DNA of 64,000 nucleotides from Spizellomyces punctatus DAOM BR117 (lineage: Eukaryota). Where the stretch lies: NCBI GenBank assembly GCA_000182565.2, contig KQ257462.1; one strand, written 5' to 3'. Positions 12,723 through 22,166 of this stretch are shown one piece after another. Below the pieces are notes generated by a model. The model did no database searches. It was not told the origin of the DNA and worked only from the letters and a program-made list of their open reading frames with translations. Made by a program: the position numbers and the translations under genes. How positions within the stretch are numbered: position 1 is the first letter of the stretch; the number at the start of each line of letters is the position of its first letter.

Positions 12723-13273
12723 AGGGGCATATGAAAGAACACCCAGAATACACCATCTGCAATTCTCGTTTCTGTCAGCTTGCTTATGTCAGGGTCATAT
12801 AAGTTCGCGCCAGTCGTCATTCCCAGAATCTTCTAAGGATTTTTGCTCTGTACTCTAACAAATCCACATGTCTACGTACATGGGAGTGAGATTTTCTGCA
12901 AAGCGATAACATTTGTAAGGGACATAAGCCAGAAGTATTTTGAAGACCAAGAGGACCAAGAATCGTCAAAACACGGCCCGTCCTATTAAATGTCAGTAAT
13001 GCATCGAAAATATCAATCCCGAGGGACACCGAATTCTCCTCGGCAGTTGAAGCTATTTGAAGGTGACATAGATGGGCTTCCGCATCAAGGGTATGTGTTG
13101 TTCTTGACATGTCACAAATCGGCCTACAGCTTGAACGGTTGCGATGAACGGTTGCGATTGAGCCAGTCATCACGACGAATCACGTGCATATGAAGGATCA
13201 CGTGCCAACTTGGTTTGACTGCGCTTCTGCATTTGCCCTTCGTACAGTTCTGCGAAGACAACTCGAAATCATC

Positions 13274-15598
13274 ATGGCTGGAGCGGATTCAGACCCTCAA
13301 AGTACATCTTCTCACGGGAATCGCTCCCCATCCCCTGCTGAGGATAGGAGGCTTCGTCCATCTGCTTCGATGTCTCCTTCACCTGGTCCGCTACCTGTTT
13401 CCGCATCGCTTCCATCGCACCACACCCCTTCGTCTGGATCATACTCTCCAAACAATGATAGCGAGCAGATCCAGTCAGTGGAACGGCCAACGGACCGGCC
13501 CGCGACAACGATTGGACGAGCGGGGGGTGCCTATATTCCACCCGCACGGCTCAGGGCTATGCAGGCAGCAATCACTGACAAAAGCAGCCCTGAATACCAA
13601 CGAATGACATGGGAAGCTTTGAAGAAGAGCATAAATGGTCTGATCAACAAAGTGAATACTGGCAATATAAAAAATATTGTGGTGGAACTTTTCGGCGAGA
13701 ACCTTATTCGCGGCCGTGGGTTGCTATGTCGGAGTATTATGAAGGCTCAAGCTGCGTCATTACCGTTCACCCCTGTGTATGCAGCCTTGGTCGCTGTCGT
13801 CAACACGAAATTTCCACAAATTGGTGAACTACTGCTGATACGGTTGGTGGTTCAATTTCGTCGTGCATATAAAAGAAGCGATAAGGCAGTTTGCCTTGCG
13901 GGAGCCAAATTTCTTGCCCACATTGTCAATCAAAAGGTCGCGCACGAGATTATAGCCTTACAGCTACTGACTCTGCTCCTGGAAAGACCCACCGATGATT
14001 CGGTCGAGGTCGGAGTGGGATTTATGCGAGACTGCGGTGCTTATTTGTCTGATATCTCGCCCAAAGCCACCAACGGAGTATTTGACCGTTTTCGGGCGAT
14101 TCTGCATGAAGGGGCCATCGATAAGCGTACACAGTACATGGTTGAGGTGCTTTTTCAAGTACGAAAGGATAAATTCAAAGACAATCCGGCGGTCCCAGAG
14201 GAGTTAGATTTGGTAGATGAAGAAGATCAAATGACCCATATGGTTTCTTTGGACGACGAGGATATTAACGTTGAGGAGGGCTGCAACGTTTTCAAGTATG
14301 ATCCTAATTATCTTCAAAATGAGGAAAAATATCAGCAGATGAAGAAGGAGATACTGGGAGAAGGCTCCGATGACGAGGATGAGGAGGAGGAAGCCAGTGA
14401 TGATGAAGAGGAGGAAGATGAATCAGGGATGGTCCGCGCTGCTCAAGAGCGACTGCAAATACAGGATGAGACCAATACGAATCTGATTAACCTGAGACGT
14501 GCCATATACTTGACTATAATGTCGAGTTTGAATTTTGAAGAATGTGCCCACAAGTGCATGAAGCTGAAAATCCAGCCGGGGCAGGAAATGGAGCTGGTGA
14601 ACATGATTATCGAGTGCTGTGGACAAGAGAGAACGTATGTTAATTTCTACGGTCTTCTGGGAGAGCGCTTCTGCAGAATCAATAAAGCTTGGTCGGATGC
14701 CTTCTGTCAGGCCTTTGAAGAAACTTACAAGACCATCCATCGATATGAAACAAATCGACTCCGAAACATCGCGAAGTTCTTTGCTCATCTTCTTTCTTCC
14801 GATGCTCTCACGTGGGAGGTTTTCGCTTTAATAAGGCTTACCGAAGCAGACACGACATCGTCCTCACGTATTTTCATCAAAATTTTGTTCCAAGACTTGT
14901 GCGAAGCATTTGGTCTGAAGAAGCTCTATGAGCGTCTCAGTGAGCCAACCATGATCGTTCAAGTGCAGACAGAAGCCGGATTCATAACGCGTGGTGTTTT
15001 CGAGGGTTTGTTCCCAAAAGATAATCCTCGCAATACGCGATTTGCGATAAATTATTTCACAAGTATCGGTCTTGGTGGTCTAACAGAGGATCTGCGAGAG
15101 TACCTCAAGAACGCGCCGAAATTGATCATGGCTCAGCAGCAGGAAGTCGAGTCGGATACAGATTCTTCCGACTCGTCGGATTCTAGCAGTGACTCCGAGA
15201 GTGATTCAGAAAGTGATGACAGCGACTCAGATAGCACGTCTGGGTCTGAGTCTGAGTCTGACCATTCGAATTCAGCGCGGCTTTCTGGCAGAAGCACGCG
15301 GGCTCCTCACCCGGACCTGGACCGAGCAAGATCACGGTACTCGAAATATGACGACAGAAAGGATCATAGCTACAACGGAGAAAAAGAGCGGTCGTCCGTG
15401 AGGAGTGATCGTCGAAATGACCGTTACAGCAGAGAAGACGAGAGCAGTCCCGGGCGAGACGGTGGTAGGGGTAGGATGGGTGATAGGTATCGCAGAGACA
15501 GTTATCCAAAGCGCCGAAGAAGCAACACGCGCTCCGTCTCACGTAGTCCTCGTCGTGATCGTGGTGACGGCCGTGAGAAGAGGTACCGTCGCGACTAA
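13274..15598 (+). CDS. CWC22: Pre-mRNA splicing factor CWC22 (MIF4G + MA3), single exon
   Basis: [11 protein letters not shown]...[66 protein letters not shown]-rich tail. Confidence 0.97.
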
Positions 15599-16339
15599 CC
15601 CTTTGCCTGATGGCGGGTTTGTTCTGTACCTATACTTTTGTGTACAGAACATGGAGCATGCACTTTTTGCAGACGAGGGGATTTTCAAATGGCAATGAGG
15701 AAGTCGCGACCATATTTTTCGGCAGTTTAGGTAGACCTGTACATGATAATATGTATCTAAAGCGATGCGCAGCGACATTCCAATTACTTGTGTCAAGAAT
15801 TGGGCACTCGTTACTATGGCAAATCTACAGCACCACTCTCACCCTCATTCCTAATATATGTATTATAGTTAGGTATCCATGCCCCTGATGTCTTTCTTCC
15901 ATCTACTTTTTTCACAGCAGGCTCTATTGAGATTGAACGGTCATTCCACTTAAGGTGTCGTTCTAGTCATTTCCGTTAATTCCAGTCCCGCTCCACCGTC
16001 GCTTCAATGGAGACTACATGCCAGGCTGTTGACGCCTCCGGCAGTTGTGATGACTGCATCTGCGTAGCCAAGATTGGTGTAAGCCCCCCAGCCGAGTTTT
16101 CTCGCCTCGGTGGGTGAGCTCGGCAAGACTTCTGAGATCTAGTGGGGGTACAGAAGCTGTGCGAAGCTGTTCCTAAGGCTACTCGCCCAGTTGGGTCTTT
16201 CTCGGCGCCCGCAGCTGTAGTGACAACCAAGGAGTCGTCCAACAACGAATTGGTGGGTGTGCGCGACCGCCGGTATTTGGCCAGGGCTTCCGCCGGCTCT
16301 CAAGTGTCTTCGTGGTATGCCAACGAGTCAGGAGGAGCA

Positions 16340-17440
16340 AACCCAGAAAACCAGACATCTCACTCCGCCCTCAACGGCAAAATCCCTTTTGAAGCCTGGT
16401 ACAGCAAGAAACCAGATGTCAGCCATCTCTGCGTTTGGAATGCTGCTGCAGAAAGCTCTTTACGGCCCGAAACAATCGCCAGGGTACTGGAACAAGAAGT
16501 TTCACAGGATGTTTACCAGTAGACATGAAGAAGCCAAGCTCGGACGGACAGTTTCAAAAGAATCACGGCAGAGACTGCCTTTACTTTGAAGAAAGGACTG
16601 GGATAATAATTGCAGCGGTTGTGCGCGACCTTCTATCGTGGGTTTACACACGGACATCCCACAGCGGCCCTTTTCAAGAATTCAAGATAGCTGAAAACGC
16701 CTTGGCGAGCTACTATGTGGGATTGGAAGTCATCCACAACGACGGCTATCACCTTCAAAAAACTGGCTACGTAGACGCTCTACTTCAGTATGGCAGAATG
16801 CAATTCTATCGCTACCCCGATGGACACCTTGACCAGCACCTTCAAAATCGACAGCAAACTACATGACGGCAAACGATCTGGGTGGACTGTCGGAAGCTTT
16901 GTATGGCTTACCTGCACACGACCAGATAATGCTTTCGTCGTAAATCTTCTCGCTCGCTACGTTCTCGTCCAACAGTTAACCACTGCTCAGCAGCTACACG
17001 CATCCTACACTTCCTCAAGGAACCAGAACGCTTGGCTTTTCACCGCGGACGTGGACACACCAATCGCCCACTGGTTCCGCCTTCCTCGCTGATAAAACGG
17101 CTATTTCCTGGTCTTCCCGCAACTCACCGTCGCCTCGTCTACAGTAGAAGCTGAATATATGAGTGTAACCGCCGCCGCCCGGGAAGCCATGTACCTCGCA
17201 GCATGCTTACTAGAATCACTCGAGGACTTTCCAGCAAGCATTCACACTTGCGATTTCTCCTTCATCACACCGATGATGTCCCAGCTCGCGGAGGGGCTCA
17301 GCTTTTGGCAAACATTGCTGCCTGTTAGCAACCGAAGATGTGGTCTAACATCACCACACCATGGCCTGGTGCACGCTCCTTCTAAAAGCCACGCCAAGCC
17401 TCTCGATCGGGCTTACGCAATCGCTGGCTCTCACTAAGAC
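16340..17440 (+). mobile_element. Degenerate Ty1/Copia retrotransposon pol relic (integrase end, RT, RNase H)
   Basis: Frameshifted pieces in Copia order: HSALNGKIPFEAWYSKKPDVSHL (post-integrase), YYVGLEV...GYVDALL / MAECNSIATPM, VGSFVWLTCTRPDNAFVVNLLARY (RT), ISWSS...TVASSTVEAEYMSVTAAAREAMYL (RNase H). No LTRs recognised. Confidence 0.88.
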
Positions 17441-18219
17441 CGAAGGCAAGCTTAGAAGGATGCCCCCTTTTTTTCTTCACCACTTGTCCGGCCTCCTTTT
17501 CAACACAATCACCGTACTACTTATTTGCTGCACCGAACCTGTTTTCTTCATCTCCAAAATGATCACGATGGCCGCTGCAGCTCCCGCGATACCCACCTGG
17601 CTCAACAAGGAGCCCAAGTCGCCTCGGCACACGAAGACGGATACCCATGGATGAATTCGAGCTCTGCTTTTGCGAGTACAAAAATCAATCGAGTGCTCGG
17701 TATCCAGGTGACCGTCTGGGTCGATGGGTGGATTGTCCAGCTTTAGAACGACCTCAATGCCCATCTCAGAACACCTGGGTACCAGGACTGGCTGAGCGAT
17801 GGGGCCAAGCAACCATACGCGAAGGGTCAGCCCTTCTCAGCACACATTGCGGAACCCTACATCAAGGCCCCCGGCGGTGGAGAAGCACCAGCGGGGATGG
17901 TTGCCGAACGTGCAGAAAAAGCTTGGAAAGGTGCGAGACGGCGGTTAGGCTCCACGCCGAGGTCCCGCAGCACGCCGTCGGATGCGCCAAAACGGCTCCC
18001 TTCACCACGTGGCCGTGTCATGCCACCCACGACTTTGCCGAGATTGCCATCGAAGCCGCTAGAGGCCTTGCTGTGACGCTGGCGGGCACGGCCGAATAGT
18101 ACGTACACACGTTAGACCCCTGCGCCTATTACAGTTCTCCCGCGATGAAGCTAAGGACTGCCGCGGAATTCTTCACGGCCATCTACGTAACCCGAATGTC
18201 CCACTCCGTGCGCCCAGCA

Positions 18220-18348
18220 GCAGTAATAGTAGTATTATATGTAGTTCGATCAGTCGCCTTAATGATCATAGCCGGAAAAAATGTAATGGGTGCTATGCAA
18301 AGACGGATAGGACCGAATAAAGTAGGATATTCAGGATAGTTACAACCG
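18220..18348 (+). pseudogene. nad1: NUMT: mitochondrial nad1 5' fragment
   Basis: SVALMIIAGKNVMGAMQRRIGPNKVGYSG-(TAG)-LQP matches ND1 consensus VAF.T..ERK..G.MQ.R.GPN.VG..GLLQP; A/T-ending codons typical of mtDNA. Confidence 0.9.
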
Positions 18349-18595
18349 AAGAAGCGAGCGGTTAATATCGAAATCTAACAAAAACGCAGGAAACTTTAAG
18401 ACAACCTGCAGGTAGTATACATGTTAGACACATAATTGTGAAGAAATGATCTGTTTATGAGTCGCTTCAGTAAAATAGATAGACCGTCTGTTTGGATTAT
18501 GTTTACAGGTATCGCGTATAAGATATTATTATGGTTTCTCTTTCAAAACTTAAGGGAAGATTAAGACCATTTATATAATACATCTAAAGGTCCAT
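18349..18595 (+). pseudogene. NUMT continuation: truncated mitochondrial group I intron
   Basis: nad1 similarity stops after LQP and AT-rich sequence follows, with P/Q-like elements ACGCAGGAAA and AACCTGCAGG (GCAGG 18386-18390 pairs with CCTGC 18405-18409) and a TAGACCGTC...ATCGCG segment reminiscent of fungal IB introns. The usual U before the 5' splice site is not seen. Confidence 0.55.
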
Positions 18596-18809
18596 CAGTA
18601 CCATGTTTCCTGATTCGGCATCCCGGTGGAGGTCGTCGGGCTCGGCGGCCTGCCCACCGTGCCCGATTCCAGGACGTAGCCGTGACGCTCAAGGTCGTGC
18701 ATCACCTGTCGGCCGGCGCGTCGCTGGCCGGGCTGCTGACCGGGCCACGCTAGAGGCTGGTGGACCTCAGGGAGCGTCGGGTCTCCGGGGTCGGGGGGCT
18801 ACTTCAGTA

Positions 18810-19146
18810 GTCTGACGGCAACGCACCACGTCGCGGGGCGGCATCGCCAGCTTGGTCTCGACGTCGACGATCAGCGGGTCGATATCGGTGCATCCTCCTT
18901 GACCTCCGAGATCGTGGAGAACTCGTGCAGCACGCACTCAATCCGGATGCTCATGCCCGCGGCACCGGGGATTGAAGACAGGAGGGTGCGGCGGGGCGAG
19001 TTGCCGACGGTGTCGCCGAAGCCCGGCTCCAGCGGCTCGATGGTGAACCGGGACCGGAACTCGTCGTCCTGTACTTCGGTGAGGGGCGGCCGCTGTGCGA
19101 TGAGCACTTTAGTACTCTTTTTCTGCGGCGCCCGCTACATGACTGC
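18810..19146 (-). pseudogene. rpoA: Degraded actinobacterial RNA polymerase alpha subunit fragment with upstream leader
   Basis: GTG start 19107: [72 protein letters not shown], close to Actinobacteria RpoA (MLIAQRP...[27 protein letters not shown]); after a frameshift [20 protein letters not shown] matches a later RpoA segment; GC-rich codons. Confidence 0.93.
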
Positions 19147-19199
19147 TGCGATCTTGCATTCGCTGGGGCGCACTCCTGTTTTTTACGACCATCAATGAT

Positions 19200-19424
19200 C
19201 ACTTCTTCTGACTCTTTGTCGATCGATTCTTCTTTTATTAACAGTTGAAGATGCCATCGAATCATCACCGGTTCTCTGATGTTGACCAACGTCCATTTCG
19301 CGAAGCCTTCTGATTCGATGGCACATTCGTTGAAGTTGCCATCGAATCGTTGCCGCATTGTCTTGTCGCTTCTTCTGCCTCTTTGTCGATTTTTTTTTCT
19401 TGGTTGTAGTTGCCATCGAATTAT
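19200..19424. repeat. Short repeat block: three direct copies of a ~22 nt unit plus one inverted copy
   Basis: GTTG(A/T)AG(A/T)TGCCATCGAAT at 19244, 19329 and 19403; inverted GATTCGATGGCA at 19312-19323; second unit TC(A/G)CTTCTTCTG(A/C)CTCTTTGTCGAT twice. Confidence 0.85.
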
Positions 19425-20553
19425 TGTCGGTTTTCCAAGGACGCGTGGATGTTTTTAACTTGCCGCGCTACCCAACGGGGTCCACAAAATTCCCACGCCC
19501 TGGACCCAATGACGGCCCACGCAGAGTCGTCCCTCGCCAACGCTGCGATCGGAAAGCGCCTACATGAACCACGCCGCTCCCAACAGCCACCCCACACCTC
19601 CTCTACTCACAAGGAGCGTCCCGCTTTACATCGTCAAGGACATTCTCTTCCGGGAACACACCGACTACCTGTTTCCATCTTGATTGGTCGGCGCAAACCG
19701 TTGGCGAAAGATGGGCATTTGGGTTGACCGCTCAAGTCTCTAGTTATCGAGAAAGGGCCAGCGACGGCCAGAGCCAATTGGGGCCTGTGTCGGTTTTTCT
19801 CTGGGGCCTGGTTTTCCCTCGGCTCAGTCGGCGGGTAGAGCCAGCCAGCCAGGCATTACCGCCAGGTCTTGGGGACTGTCGGCGACAGTCTGGTTGACCA
19901 TTTTTGCAGTAAGCGCGGTGTGCTATCGACTCATTGCCGGTTTTCTAAGGAAAAGACGCAATTCCCTCTAGGTTATGTTGCCGCACAATTTACAGACCAG
20001 ATCTGGTTCTGTGCCAATGTCGGTGGCGTACGAAAGTAAGCCTGCCATACTGGCAACAGATTCCCACGGCAGAAGTACCAGGGCTCACAACCCACTACTA
20101 GTAAGCTGGCAAAATCCATATTGTATTCTTAGGTCTTGTAAGATGGATCATGTTCGTGCCCGTTCTGCGCTGTGTACGTAATCTCCGCTTGTCTGGTCAT
20201 ATTACAAGTCACATGACCTGGCTGAGAACTCCGCTGTTAACAGTAAGTTTGATCTATGACTACATTTATTGGTTAGTGTGAATAGCGCTTCAAAAGCTAC
20301 TTTGTTAGCTACTATTCAATACTTGGTGTGGAGAAGACGATGAGAATGAGTAGGTGGATCAATAGGTCCAAACGATAGCCTCGCACGATATTTGAGTAGG
20401 CTATGGGTCAGTTTCTTCGTTCGAGTCGCAATATCTTGCAACATAGATTGCAGTTCAAAGCCAATTTTGAGGACAAAATTCTAAGTTAGGAAGATTCGCC
20501 TATGCTGCTACTAACTGCCCTCGATTTTCAGTGAGAGCTTCCGCACTCTCATG

Positions 20554-22166
20554 CTATGTATCCTCAGGAGTGGCAGCGTGACGTTCAAAACTGACCCTAC
20601 TTGATAAGGAGTGGTTTTCCGAGGTCTCAGAACTTTCCAGTATCGAGAAAGTATCTTCAACCTCAATGATCAGCCCATGTTTAAGCGGCGAAGAGATCTT
20701 AACCACGGCAGCTTCTCCACCACGTTCTGGCGATGAGCCGTATAAAGCCAACGGTGAAAATGGCGACGAAGTCGAAGATGCTGAGGACGCGGAATCGCAA
20801 ACGATGGGAGAAGCCAATGTGGAAGACTCGGAGGCAGATGACGACGCAGCCTGCAACGCTGGAATAGTTTCCAGTACGGTAGGCGGGTCGGAGAAGGCTG
20901 GAGAGTTACCGAACAAAGTTGCACGTTCCGATTCCGATATACTAGATAGAGTACCTTGTGTGTCGCCACTCACTACGCTGAAGCGATCCCCGCGTGGGAA
21001 CACAGGATCCGGTAACGTGGTAATGACCCGAGGAGCGAGTCTTTTGTCGGGAGAAGCAGTTGATATGGGAGCGACACCGTCCGTCGGTGGTTCGACACCT
21101 TTCGCTAGCAAGAGGCGTCAAGTAAGCGTCAACGCAACTGCCGATAGGTGCGACGTACTGCTTTTGGTTTCACCGGCCTTTATGTCCATCTTTGCGCCTC
21201 GTGGAACTGAATTGGAGATATCTGTTCTCCCGTTTCAGTGTGCGCTTGGATATATTGGAAAGTCTCGTTGCGCCGTCTCAGGCCGCAATTTATACTTACG
21301 CATTACGGACACAATCCCGCCTAGTTCTACGAGTTCCGTTTGACTACCGATAGGATCTGAGAAAGGATTACCCGCAAGAGAGATACCTAATTTGACAGCG
21401 TTTTCAGCGCATGATTTAACATACGGTCTTAAAATGCAGAAGAGCTTACCTTTCAGCGCCGGCAGCTTACTGAATATATCATTGACAGATGATAGCTGGT
21501 TGTTGCTGATGCCGAAAAATTGCTACTAAACTACATCAGTCTCCTATGATTAATATCCACTTGTTTTGATGAATATACCAGTCGTGTAAGCTTTGCCATC
21601 GACTCTGGTATCTCAGTGATCTTGTTGTCCGACAAAGAAAGAGACAACAGAGTGTCAATGTCACATATCGATTCCGGGACATACGACAATTGATTATTGG
21701 AAAGATTCAATCTCGTCAGTTGTCCAAGCTTATCCAAGCAAGCGTCTTCTATTGCAGAAGAAGTTAGGCGGTTGGCTCCCAAAGACAGAGTTTCCAGTAA
21801 GAACAGCTGATTGAAACAGGGAGGAAGACTGGTGAGGTGGTTGGAGCTGTTGACAGCAGATTTTGTTAATATTACTTCAGAGAATCTATTTATTCAGGAT
21901 TCCATACCTCAAATGGAGTACTCTCAAGCTTTTAATCGAACACAGTTCAGGAGGTAGTGAGGATATGTTGTTATTACTATAATATATGGATCAGGAAGTC
22001 GGGTCTGCAAACGTAAGTGATTGACATCCAAGGCATAGCTAATTGCATGTCGCAAAGGCAGTATATTTCCCACCTTAAGTTCAGTATAACCAGTGACTTT
22101 ATCGCTAGGACCGTCGCCGGGATCGAGTCCAGCGACGAGTGAGCGAGTTGGACCACCTGGCATCAA
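20554..22166 (-). CDS. Leucine-rich repeat protein with Ser-rich C-terminus, multi-exon; start uncertain
   Basis: LRR exons NNNISSLPPELCSIKSLRVLHL, LTRLNLSNNQLSYVPESICDIDTLLSLSLSDNKITEIP and a LAGNPF cap, followed by a long low-complexity exon. Confidence 0.75.

Follow-up and report, generated by a model that had tools for sequence, protein, structure and literature searches.

The genome of the chytrid fungus Spizellomyces punctatus DAOM BR117 harbors a decayed fragment of an actinomycete rpoA gene which is real and physically linked to fungal flanks. The fragment is part of a foreign insert of approximately 936 bp (about 940 bp in round numbers), which occupies positions 18216-19151 of the window (the whole 64,000-nt stretch of contig KQ257462.1 analysed here) and is set inside host repeats. 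The insert comprises a copy of mitochondrial nad1 followed by a group-I-intron-like stretch, a broken adnB gene on the plus strand, and rpoA together with its leader on the minus strand. The identities of these pieces, their linkage and decay, the repeats at a deletion within rpoA, and the clade of the donor are directly supported. The whole is probably a non-functional mosaic, in which end joining inserted co-ligated mitochondrial and actinomycete fragments into a break in repeat DNA, where they decayed neutrally thereafter. A preliminary description of the locus had correctly recognised an actinomycete rpoA fossil, but it overlooked the mosaic with adnB and mitochondrial DNA and the extension of the patch leftwards to 18216.

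Extent and linkage of the insert

Within the window, a GC content of at least 68% over 120 nt occurs only at 18601-18880 and 18921-19110, both inside the insert, and the region 18100-19200 is single-copy in the S. punctatus genome (24.1 Mb, 38 contigs). The pieces adjoin within a few bases of one another, with host DNA absent between nad1 and adnB. If the unconfirmed reading of 18349-18605 as an intron is correct, DNA of the two origins is at most 10 bp apart, with nad1-like DNA extending to 18614 and adnB beginning at 18616.

For the linkage check, four of 22 listed sequencing runs (X1 from 2020, X9 from 2011, X16, and X17) were mapped on 14600-20600. Contigs from X1 (18514-19097 and 19097-19254) and from X9 (19097-19335) show no differences from the assembly. 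Together they bridge the joints between the intron-like stretch and adnB, between adnB and rpoA, at the rpoA deletion, and between the leader and the right flank; the listed contigs of the four runs leave the joints at 18216 and 18348 unbridged, and the patch is not covered end to end by any of them. In X17, a ChIP run with 38-nt reads whose depth does not represent copy number, 30 of 30 bins are covered, one of 3259 reads is partly aligned, and no breakpoints are listed.

These data bear on the reading that a contaminating bacterium or an assembly chimera produced the locus, which is very unlikely and to which we give next to no weight. In its favor, the four runs may come from one strain, and X9 may stem from the assembly's own project. 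On the other hand, the genes are disrupted and have decayed by about 8%, identical damaged letters recur in runs of 2011, 2020, and 2026, the inner and right joints are bridged, and the rest of a 6-kb rpoA-operon reference has no match in the genome. The position of the fossil in fungal DNA, as claimed initially, is thus corroborated: the reads show damaged letters and bridged joints instead of an intact rpoA unlinked to fungal flanks, the outcome that had been named as fatal to the claim. No empty site was seen at the locus, whose flanks are rearranged, and an exact look-up of the overlapping 135-aa and 78-aa ORFs in a protein collection gave no entry.

The rpoA remnant

Codons 1 to about 75 of rpoA are located on the minus strand at 18885-19107, with a GTG start at 19107 and a frameshift at codon 73. 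The piece matches PF01193, and its best match in the PDB is 7vpd, an actinomycete-type RpoA of 340 aa (E = 3e-28, residues 1-73), followed by weaker matches to 6wvj (E = 1e-17) and to 329-aa chains of the E. coli type (E = 1e-13). At the DNA level, the metagenome locus L016 gives the best match of the 87 loci that served as database, with 82% over 276 nt including the leader. A second piece, codons 187-208 (18824-18889, minus strand; 81-86% to the best references), is joined to codon ~73-76, the internal deletion amounting to 339-340 bp with 113 codons lost. Its ends are 339 nt apart in 73/73 references, one base having been lost at the joint, and they share an exact direct repeat of up to 7 nt, which measures 6-7 nt in 39 of the 73 references. 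Past about codon 208 no rpoA match was found, PF01000 has no match at the locus, and the remnant does not possess the full frame with dimerisation and C-terminal domains of a functional RpoA. The GTG-started N-terminus of ~75 codons reported in the preliminary description therefore agrees with both PF01193 and 7vpd; of its interval 18810-19146, the N-terminal part stands, but the second rpoA piece (18889-18824) had been overlooked there.

A scan of named genomes with the damaged fragment returned only two distant, non-actinomycete-like loci among 344 candidate stretches. The region 18600-18810 was considered as a continuation of rpoA or as a minus-strand regulator and was rejected, as it matches adnB on the plus strand.

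Full-length rpoA was also observed on Streptomyces plasmid records (L006, 4039-5055; L007, at 3001; L008, 3000-4007), with 22 Streptomyces records matched. In both annotated plasmid records, L006 and L008, the gene is located outside the ribosomal operon, and in L008 it lies two genes from a terminal-protein gene. The 11.85-Mb record NZ_LT559118.1 (L005, L010) is labelled as a plasmid and bears an rpsD-rpoA-rplQ operon; it is probably a chromosome rather than a plasmid.

Decay and age

The decay of rpoA was assessed against 84 reference loci, of which 82 were parseable and 61 both complete and not redundant. Near-invariant sites (at least 95%) in the first or second codon position number 122; the fossil is changed at 9 of them, the 61 references at 1 in the median and at 5 at most. 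Relative to P0103, a protein of its own clade (see below), it shows 16 amino-acid changes in 90 codons, 16/16 of which are single-base steps; of 274 RpoA rows, P0103 requires the fewest base changes. This corresponds to a decay of about 16/199 non-synonymous sites (8.0%), with another estimate of 9/133 (6.8%). The dN/dS ratio of the fossil versus the 60 references that yielded a value has a median of 0.25 and is only modestly raised over the 0.17 found between references (95th percentile 0.30); as a decay test it is weak, since dS is dominated by the distance from donor to reference. The GC3 content of the fossil is 0.91, compared with 0.50 in the adjacent host gene. Both the damaging changes at conserved sites and the unselected decay proposed earlier are borne out, the former by the near-invariant positions and the latter by these together with the single-base steps, the frameshifts, and a stop.

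The mitochondrial piece has decayed to a similar extent: 10/133 (7.5%) in nad1 does not differ from the two rpoA values (Fisher p = 1.0), with wide intervals of about 4-13%. The like decay of both pieces is consistent with one capture, although, given the width of the age intervals, two events close in time would also be compatible.

The donor

A tree was calculated from 32 rows and 90 columns, the 31 reference rows being all actinomycete-type and chosen by us from match lists. The fossil, which has a long branch, groups with six unnamed proteins in a clade of seven rows (support 97/100), and the rows of Streptosporangiaceae, Nocardiopsis, Actinocorallia, Streptomyces, and Actinopolymorpha lie outside it. 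It shares 74/90 residues with the clade proteins P0103/P0300, but unlike them it is cut short, has an internal deletion, and carries a frameshift. Identity to P0103 is 83-88% in the proteins listed next, and those of them with names are mostly Streptosporangiales. The donor thus falls in an actinomycete clade in which it is placeable, not nameable. The actinomycete origin stated in the preliminary description is supported by this clade as well as by 7vpd as the best structure match; as to the identifiability of the donor, the clade (97/100) can be given and the name cannot.

The locus L016, near Actinocorallia and a Streptosporangiaceae MAG, was tried as kin of the donor and rejected, as it requires 21 steps versus 16 for P0103. 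For the clade proteins P0103, P0086, P0081, P0084, P0119, P0169, and P0300, names are absent from the records (Logan assemblies and one NCBI record).

The adnB fragment

The actinomycete adnB fragment (18616 to ~18790, plus strand) is disrupted twice, by a frameshift of 1 nt near 18669 and by a TAG stop at 18751 in place of the Trp of the reference. In the plasmid collection it matches the Nonomuraea locus L010 (70% over 134 nt, E = 3e-6), profile matches occur in two frames (E = 7e-4 each), and the GC3 of the second frame is 26/29. The reference gene in L010 is the second of two tandem UvrD + PD-(D/E)XK genes, the arrangement of AdnB, which is the name we assume for this second gene; the sources call it ATP-dependent helicase. 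Homologues were collected as the 120 nearest relatives of the Nonomuraea gene among 4670 matches, which places the donor of this piece no finer than "actinomycete". On the circular Nonomuraea record adnB and rpoA are ~2.4 Mb apart, and in the patch, where 18790-18823 constitutes their junction region, they have opposite orientation. A search of the genome with a 10-kb adnAB reference gave no match and also missed the known 70% piece, being too blunt for counting fossils.

The mitochondrial piece

The nuclear copy of nad1 covers about codons 4-48 (18216-18348, plus strand; PF00146, E = 1e-6) and contains TAG at a conserved Leu position. In mitochondria of some chytrids, TAG serves as a Leu codon; together with the flanking genes, this codon points to a chytrid-type fungus as the host. 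The PF00146 match is the only one in the 24-Mb genome, in which cox1 has no match at all. Compared with a mitochondrial contig of X9 (depth 1004), the copy shows 10 substitutions and 2 gaps in 133 nt, and five of the eight listed changes are non-synonymous; it is a nuclear copy neutrally diverged from the fungus's own mitochondrial DNA, i.e. a NUMT.

Position 144 of nad1 is followed by an AT-rich (34% GC), unconfirmed group-I-intron-like stretch (18349-18605, plus strand). Searched with patterns which we take to represent the P, Q, R, and S elements of group I introns, it displays P-, Q-, and S-like motifs at 18386, 18403, and 18557 as well as a terminal G, and no R motif was found in 18349-18605. 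The exon in front has G as its last letter, an oddity for group I introns, for which U is expected before the 5′ splice site, and Rfam gave no intron match and nothing meaningful on the insert. Behind the stretch, the nine nucleotides at 18606-18614 (plus strand) resemble nad1 past position 144, agreeing with the mitochondrial continuation in 7/9 letters, and nothing else in 18349-18630 matches it better. The stretch is absent from the current mitochondrial contigs of both X1 and X9, where nad1 continues without interruption, and may thus be the trace of a nad1 intron that has since been lost.

The direct joint between nad1 and adnB would also be expected if bacterial DNA had entered the mitochondrial genome first and the joined piece had then moved to the nucleus, and bacterial DNA in a fern mitogenome has been published (PMC10027690, available excerpt). 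Such a detour is nevertheless very doubtful here, given that nad1 would be cut ~9 nt past the intron-like stretch, that the mitochondrial contigs of today continue as plain nad1, and that no mitochondrial-type variants are listed over 18349-19151.

The rpoA leader and its hairpin

Upstream of the GTG start, positions 19108-19151 (minus strand) contain the hairpin of the actinomycete rpsD-rpoA spacer and a decayed ribosome-binding site, and the alignment with L016 reaches 19151. The leader sequence GTCATGTAGCGGGC at 19143-19130 on the minus strand deviates by one mismatch from a 14-nt core which we drew from the reference leaders themselves; on both strands of the 64 kb, only one other site has at most two mismatches to this core. 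The hairpin of the fossil is located 25 nt from the start, within the 20-30 nt typical of the conserved spacer hairpin, has one change in its loop, and has kept three inner pairs. The resemblance to an element upstream of actinobacterial rpoA, noted initially, is therefore confirmed by the core motif and the retained pairs, and the alignment to rpsD-rpoA spacers proposed at that time succeeds with both the Nonomuraea spacer and L016.

Of 61 non-redundant actinomycete leaders (L005-L008, L011-L090), 51 contain a hairpin with an 8-nt loop, situated 20-45 nt ahead of rpoA. Stem pairs 4-7 are kept in 47, 46, 45, and 40 of these 51, with swaps between GC, CG, and TA, and pairs beyond in 21-22 of 51; as the pattern was taken from the same leaders, only pairs 4-7 constitute a free test. 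Rfam families gave no match on the spacer in four reference loci, and one narrow literature query returned nothing relevant. The leader hairpin is a candidate for an unlisted cis-element of actinomycetes.

The rpsD-rpoA spacer belongs to the operon transcript, and the same leader precedes the stand-alone plasmid rpoA of Streptomyces L006. Since the spacer is transcribed and a plasmid gene carries it, the leader alone proves neither a DNA nor an operon origin, and the earlier view of a transfer from genomic DNA goes beyond what it shows. Indirect evidence for a DNA origin of the pieces comes from the intron-like stretch, which is unspliced, and from the opposite orientation of the two bacterial genes.

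An RNA copy made by host retroelement reverse transcription, or a vector such as a plasmid or virus with a stand-alone rpoA, would be the alternative. The genome contains many intact RVT_2 genes (61 matches), the flanks are retroelement-like, and rpoA occurs on Streptomyces plasmids, one of them with the same leader. Against this, the fossil is separated in the tree from the Streptomyces rows including the plasmid copy L007, adnB and rpoA are ~2.4 Mb apart on the Nonomuraea record and oppositely oriented in the patch, and the mitochondrial piece looks unspliced; we regard this origin as highly improbable.

Flanks, neighboring genes, and RNA

The left flank (17385-18217, plus strand) is a decayed multicopy host repeat ORF with matches on contigs C3, C4, C8, C9, C12, and C28; it is 69% identical to L095, and the match ends at 18217, where the ORF is cut. 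In L097, a copy of the repeat adjoins a chromodomain ORF (Chromo PF00385, E = 8e-17), and for this reason the repeat is probably retroelement-borne. The right flank (19152-20025, no strand assigned), bridged to the rpoA leader by contigs of both X1 and X9, consists of degenerate host repeats and contains, at 19921-20025, another piece from the repeat ORF family of the left flank. Two readings of the surroundings were given up: the GC-rich region 17630-18100 is host repeat and not bacterial DNA, and a clean splitting of one repeat copy by the insert (18217/19993) was not established, the right flank looking like a second, partly deleted copy. Further outwards, 16104-16259 and 20407-20721 are contiguous in L100 (contig C24) and oppositely oriented here, which suggests an inversion of ~4.5 kb containing the insert.

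Low-level RNA in the sense of rpoA appears at 18419-19021 (minus strand; X16 depth 3.6, 8.4, and 0.9). The minus-strand X16 reads with depth 3.6-8.4 cover 18419-18820, with no variant letters listed. At the 3′ end of an adjacent gene, which we presume to be Cwc22-like, X16 reaches a depth of 114, first mates reading the sense of this plus-strand gene. None of the listed runs is on record as RNA; X9, labelled "DNA?", shows a depth of 4.5 on the patch versus 103 and yet a spliced-looking joint. The RNA over the patch is probably read-through from the right flank. Ten ATGs upstream within about 310 nt of the rpoA remnant, together with the broken frame, make an RpoA product unlikely.

Three further observations concern the neighborhood. 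The Cwc22-like gene (13184-15598) is intronless, combines MIF4G and MA3, and is expressed, with poly(A) loose ends near 15783. In X9, a 60-nt skip with CT..AC borders at 17150-17211, over a copia-like remnant (RVT_2 only at E = 0.097), would be spliced minus-strand RNA. The ChIP run X17 is strongly enriched at 16400-17600 and 19600-20200, with up to ~60 per strand versus 2-4 in the neighboring gene.

Origin of the mosaic

In the reading we favor, one cell would have contained both a piece of mitochondrial DNA of the fungus itself and scraps of an actinomycete chromosome, namely adnB and the leader-bearing rpoA. End joining, aided by short homologies, would have ligated these fragments into a double-strand break located in host repeat DNA, and neutral decay of ~8% would have followed since insertion, with no RpoA made. 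We infer the single event, the repair pathway, a common donor of both bacterial pieces, and the route of DNA entry. The homologies at the joints comprise ~2 nt between host and nad1, an imperfect GG(G/C)ATC between nad1 and adnB, and the up to 7 exact nucleotides at the rpoA deletion; microhomology is thus clear at the deletion, and the other joints are short or imperfect, eroded by decay.

Chance adjacency is unlikely, because the genome of 24 Mb contains only this nad1 copy and no cox1 match. This bears on an explanation by separate insertions, in which mitochondrial and bacterial pieces arrived at different times at a fragile, repeat-rich site. The scrambled repeat neighborhood, in which the pieces contiguous in L100 are split and inverted, and the loose age estimates are in line with it. 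Nonetheless it is unlikely, as nad1 and adnB abut without host DNA, the divergences are equal within error, mitochondrial copies seem rare in the genome, and, in the available text of a study on rice (PMC6215612), no recurrent insertion was met. A more specific version of a joint capture, that the actinomycete lived inside the chytrid or was digested by it and that both DNAs were freed in one compartment and ligated there, is rather improbable. If it were true, the patch would be a fossil of a chytrid-actinomycete association and would point to a route by which actinomycete genes reach these fungi.

Significance and comparison with known systems

Most likely, the patch is a scar of DNA-break repair, by which foreign DNA enters a fungal genome without being useful. 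Surveys of gene transfer in fungi count the useful survivors, whereas the patch samples the raw input, namely scraps of core genes beyond selection. Although functionless and a single locus, it is a test case for the entry of foreign DNA into fungi: the attached mitochondrial fragment serves as an internal clock, and the donor can be traced to a clade. If one event created it, DNA of bacterial and of mitochondrial origin came together within a fungal cell, which renders the entry route testable.

Dead fragments of bacterial core genes in eukaryotic chromosomes are familiar from endosymbiont-to-host transfers, e.g. the nuclear inserts derived from Wolbachia. In contrast to these, which stem from endosymbionts, the patch has the high GC3 of free-living actinomycetes.

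Actinomycetia are among the donors to Chytridiomycota according to the accessible portion of a proteome-based study (PMC11291939). The bacteria-to-chytrid xenologs described there are intact proteins, whereas the patch holds a scrap of an informational gene without a product, invisible to a proteome screen. The available portions of PMC10473863 and PMC10507103 contain nothing specific to such a patch, and among the open-access entries listed, covered by listing and the starts of abstracts, neither this locus nor a fungal mosaic of mitochondrial and actinomycete DNA is described.

The closest counterparts are numins or complex numts, i.e. mosaics of mitochondrial and plastid DNA joined bluntly or through microhomology (Portugez, Martin and Hazkani-Covo 2018, PMC6215612, available excerpt), whose fragments meet before or during integration according to that excerpt. 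As far as it describes them, numins likewise place adjacent fragments of two origins in one non-functional nuclear insert; their partner is plastid DNA and their hosts are plants, whereas the S. punctatus patch combines mitochondrial with actinomycete DNA of GC3 0.91 in a fungal host. The patch thus works like a numin but is not one, its partner being actinomycete and not plastid DNA.
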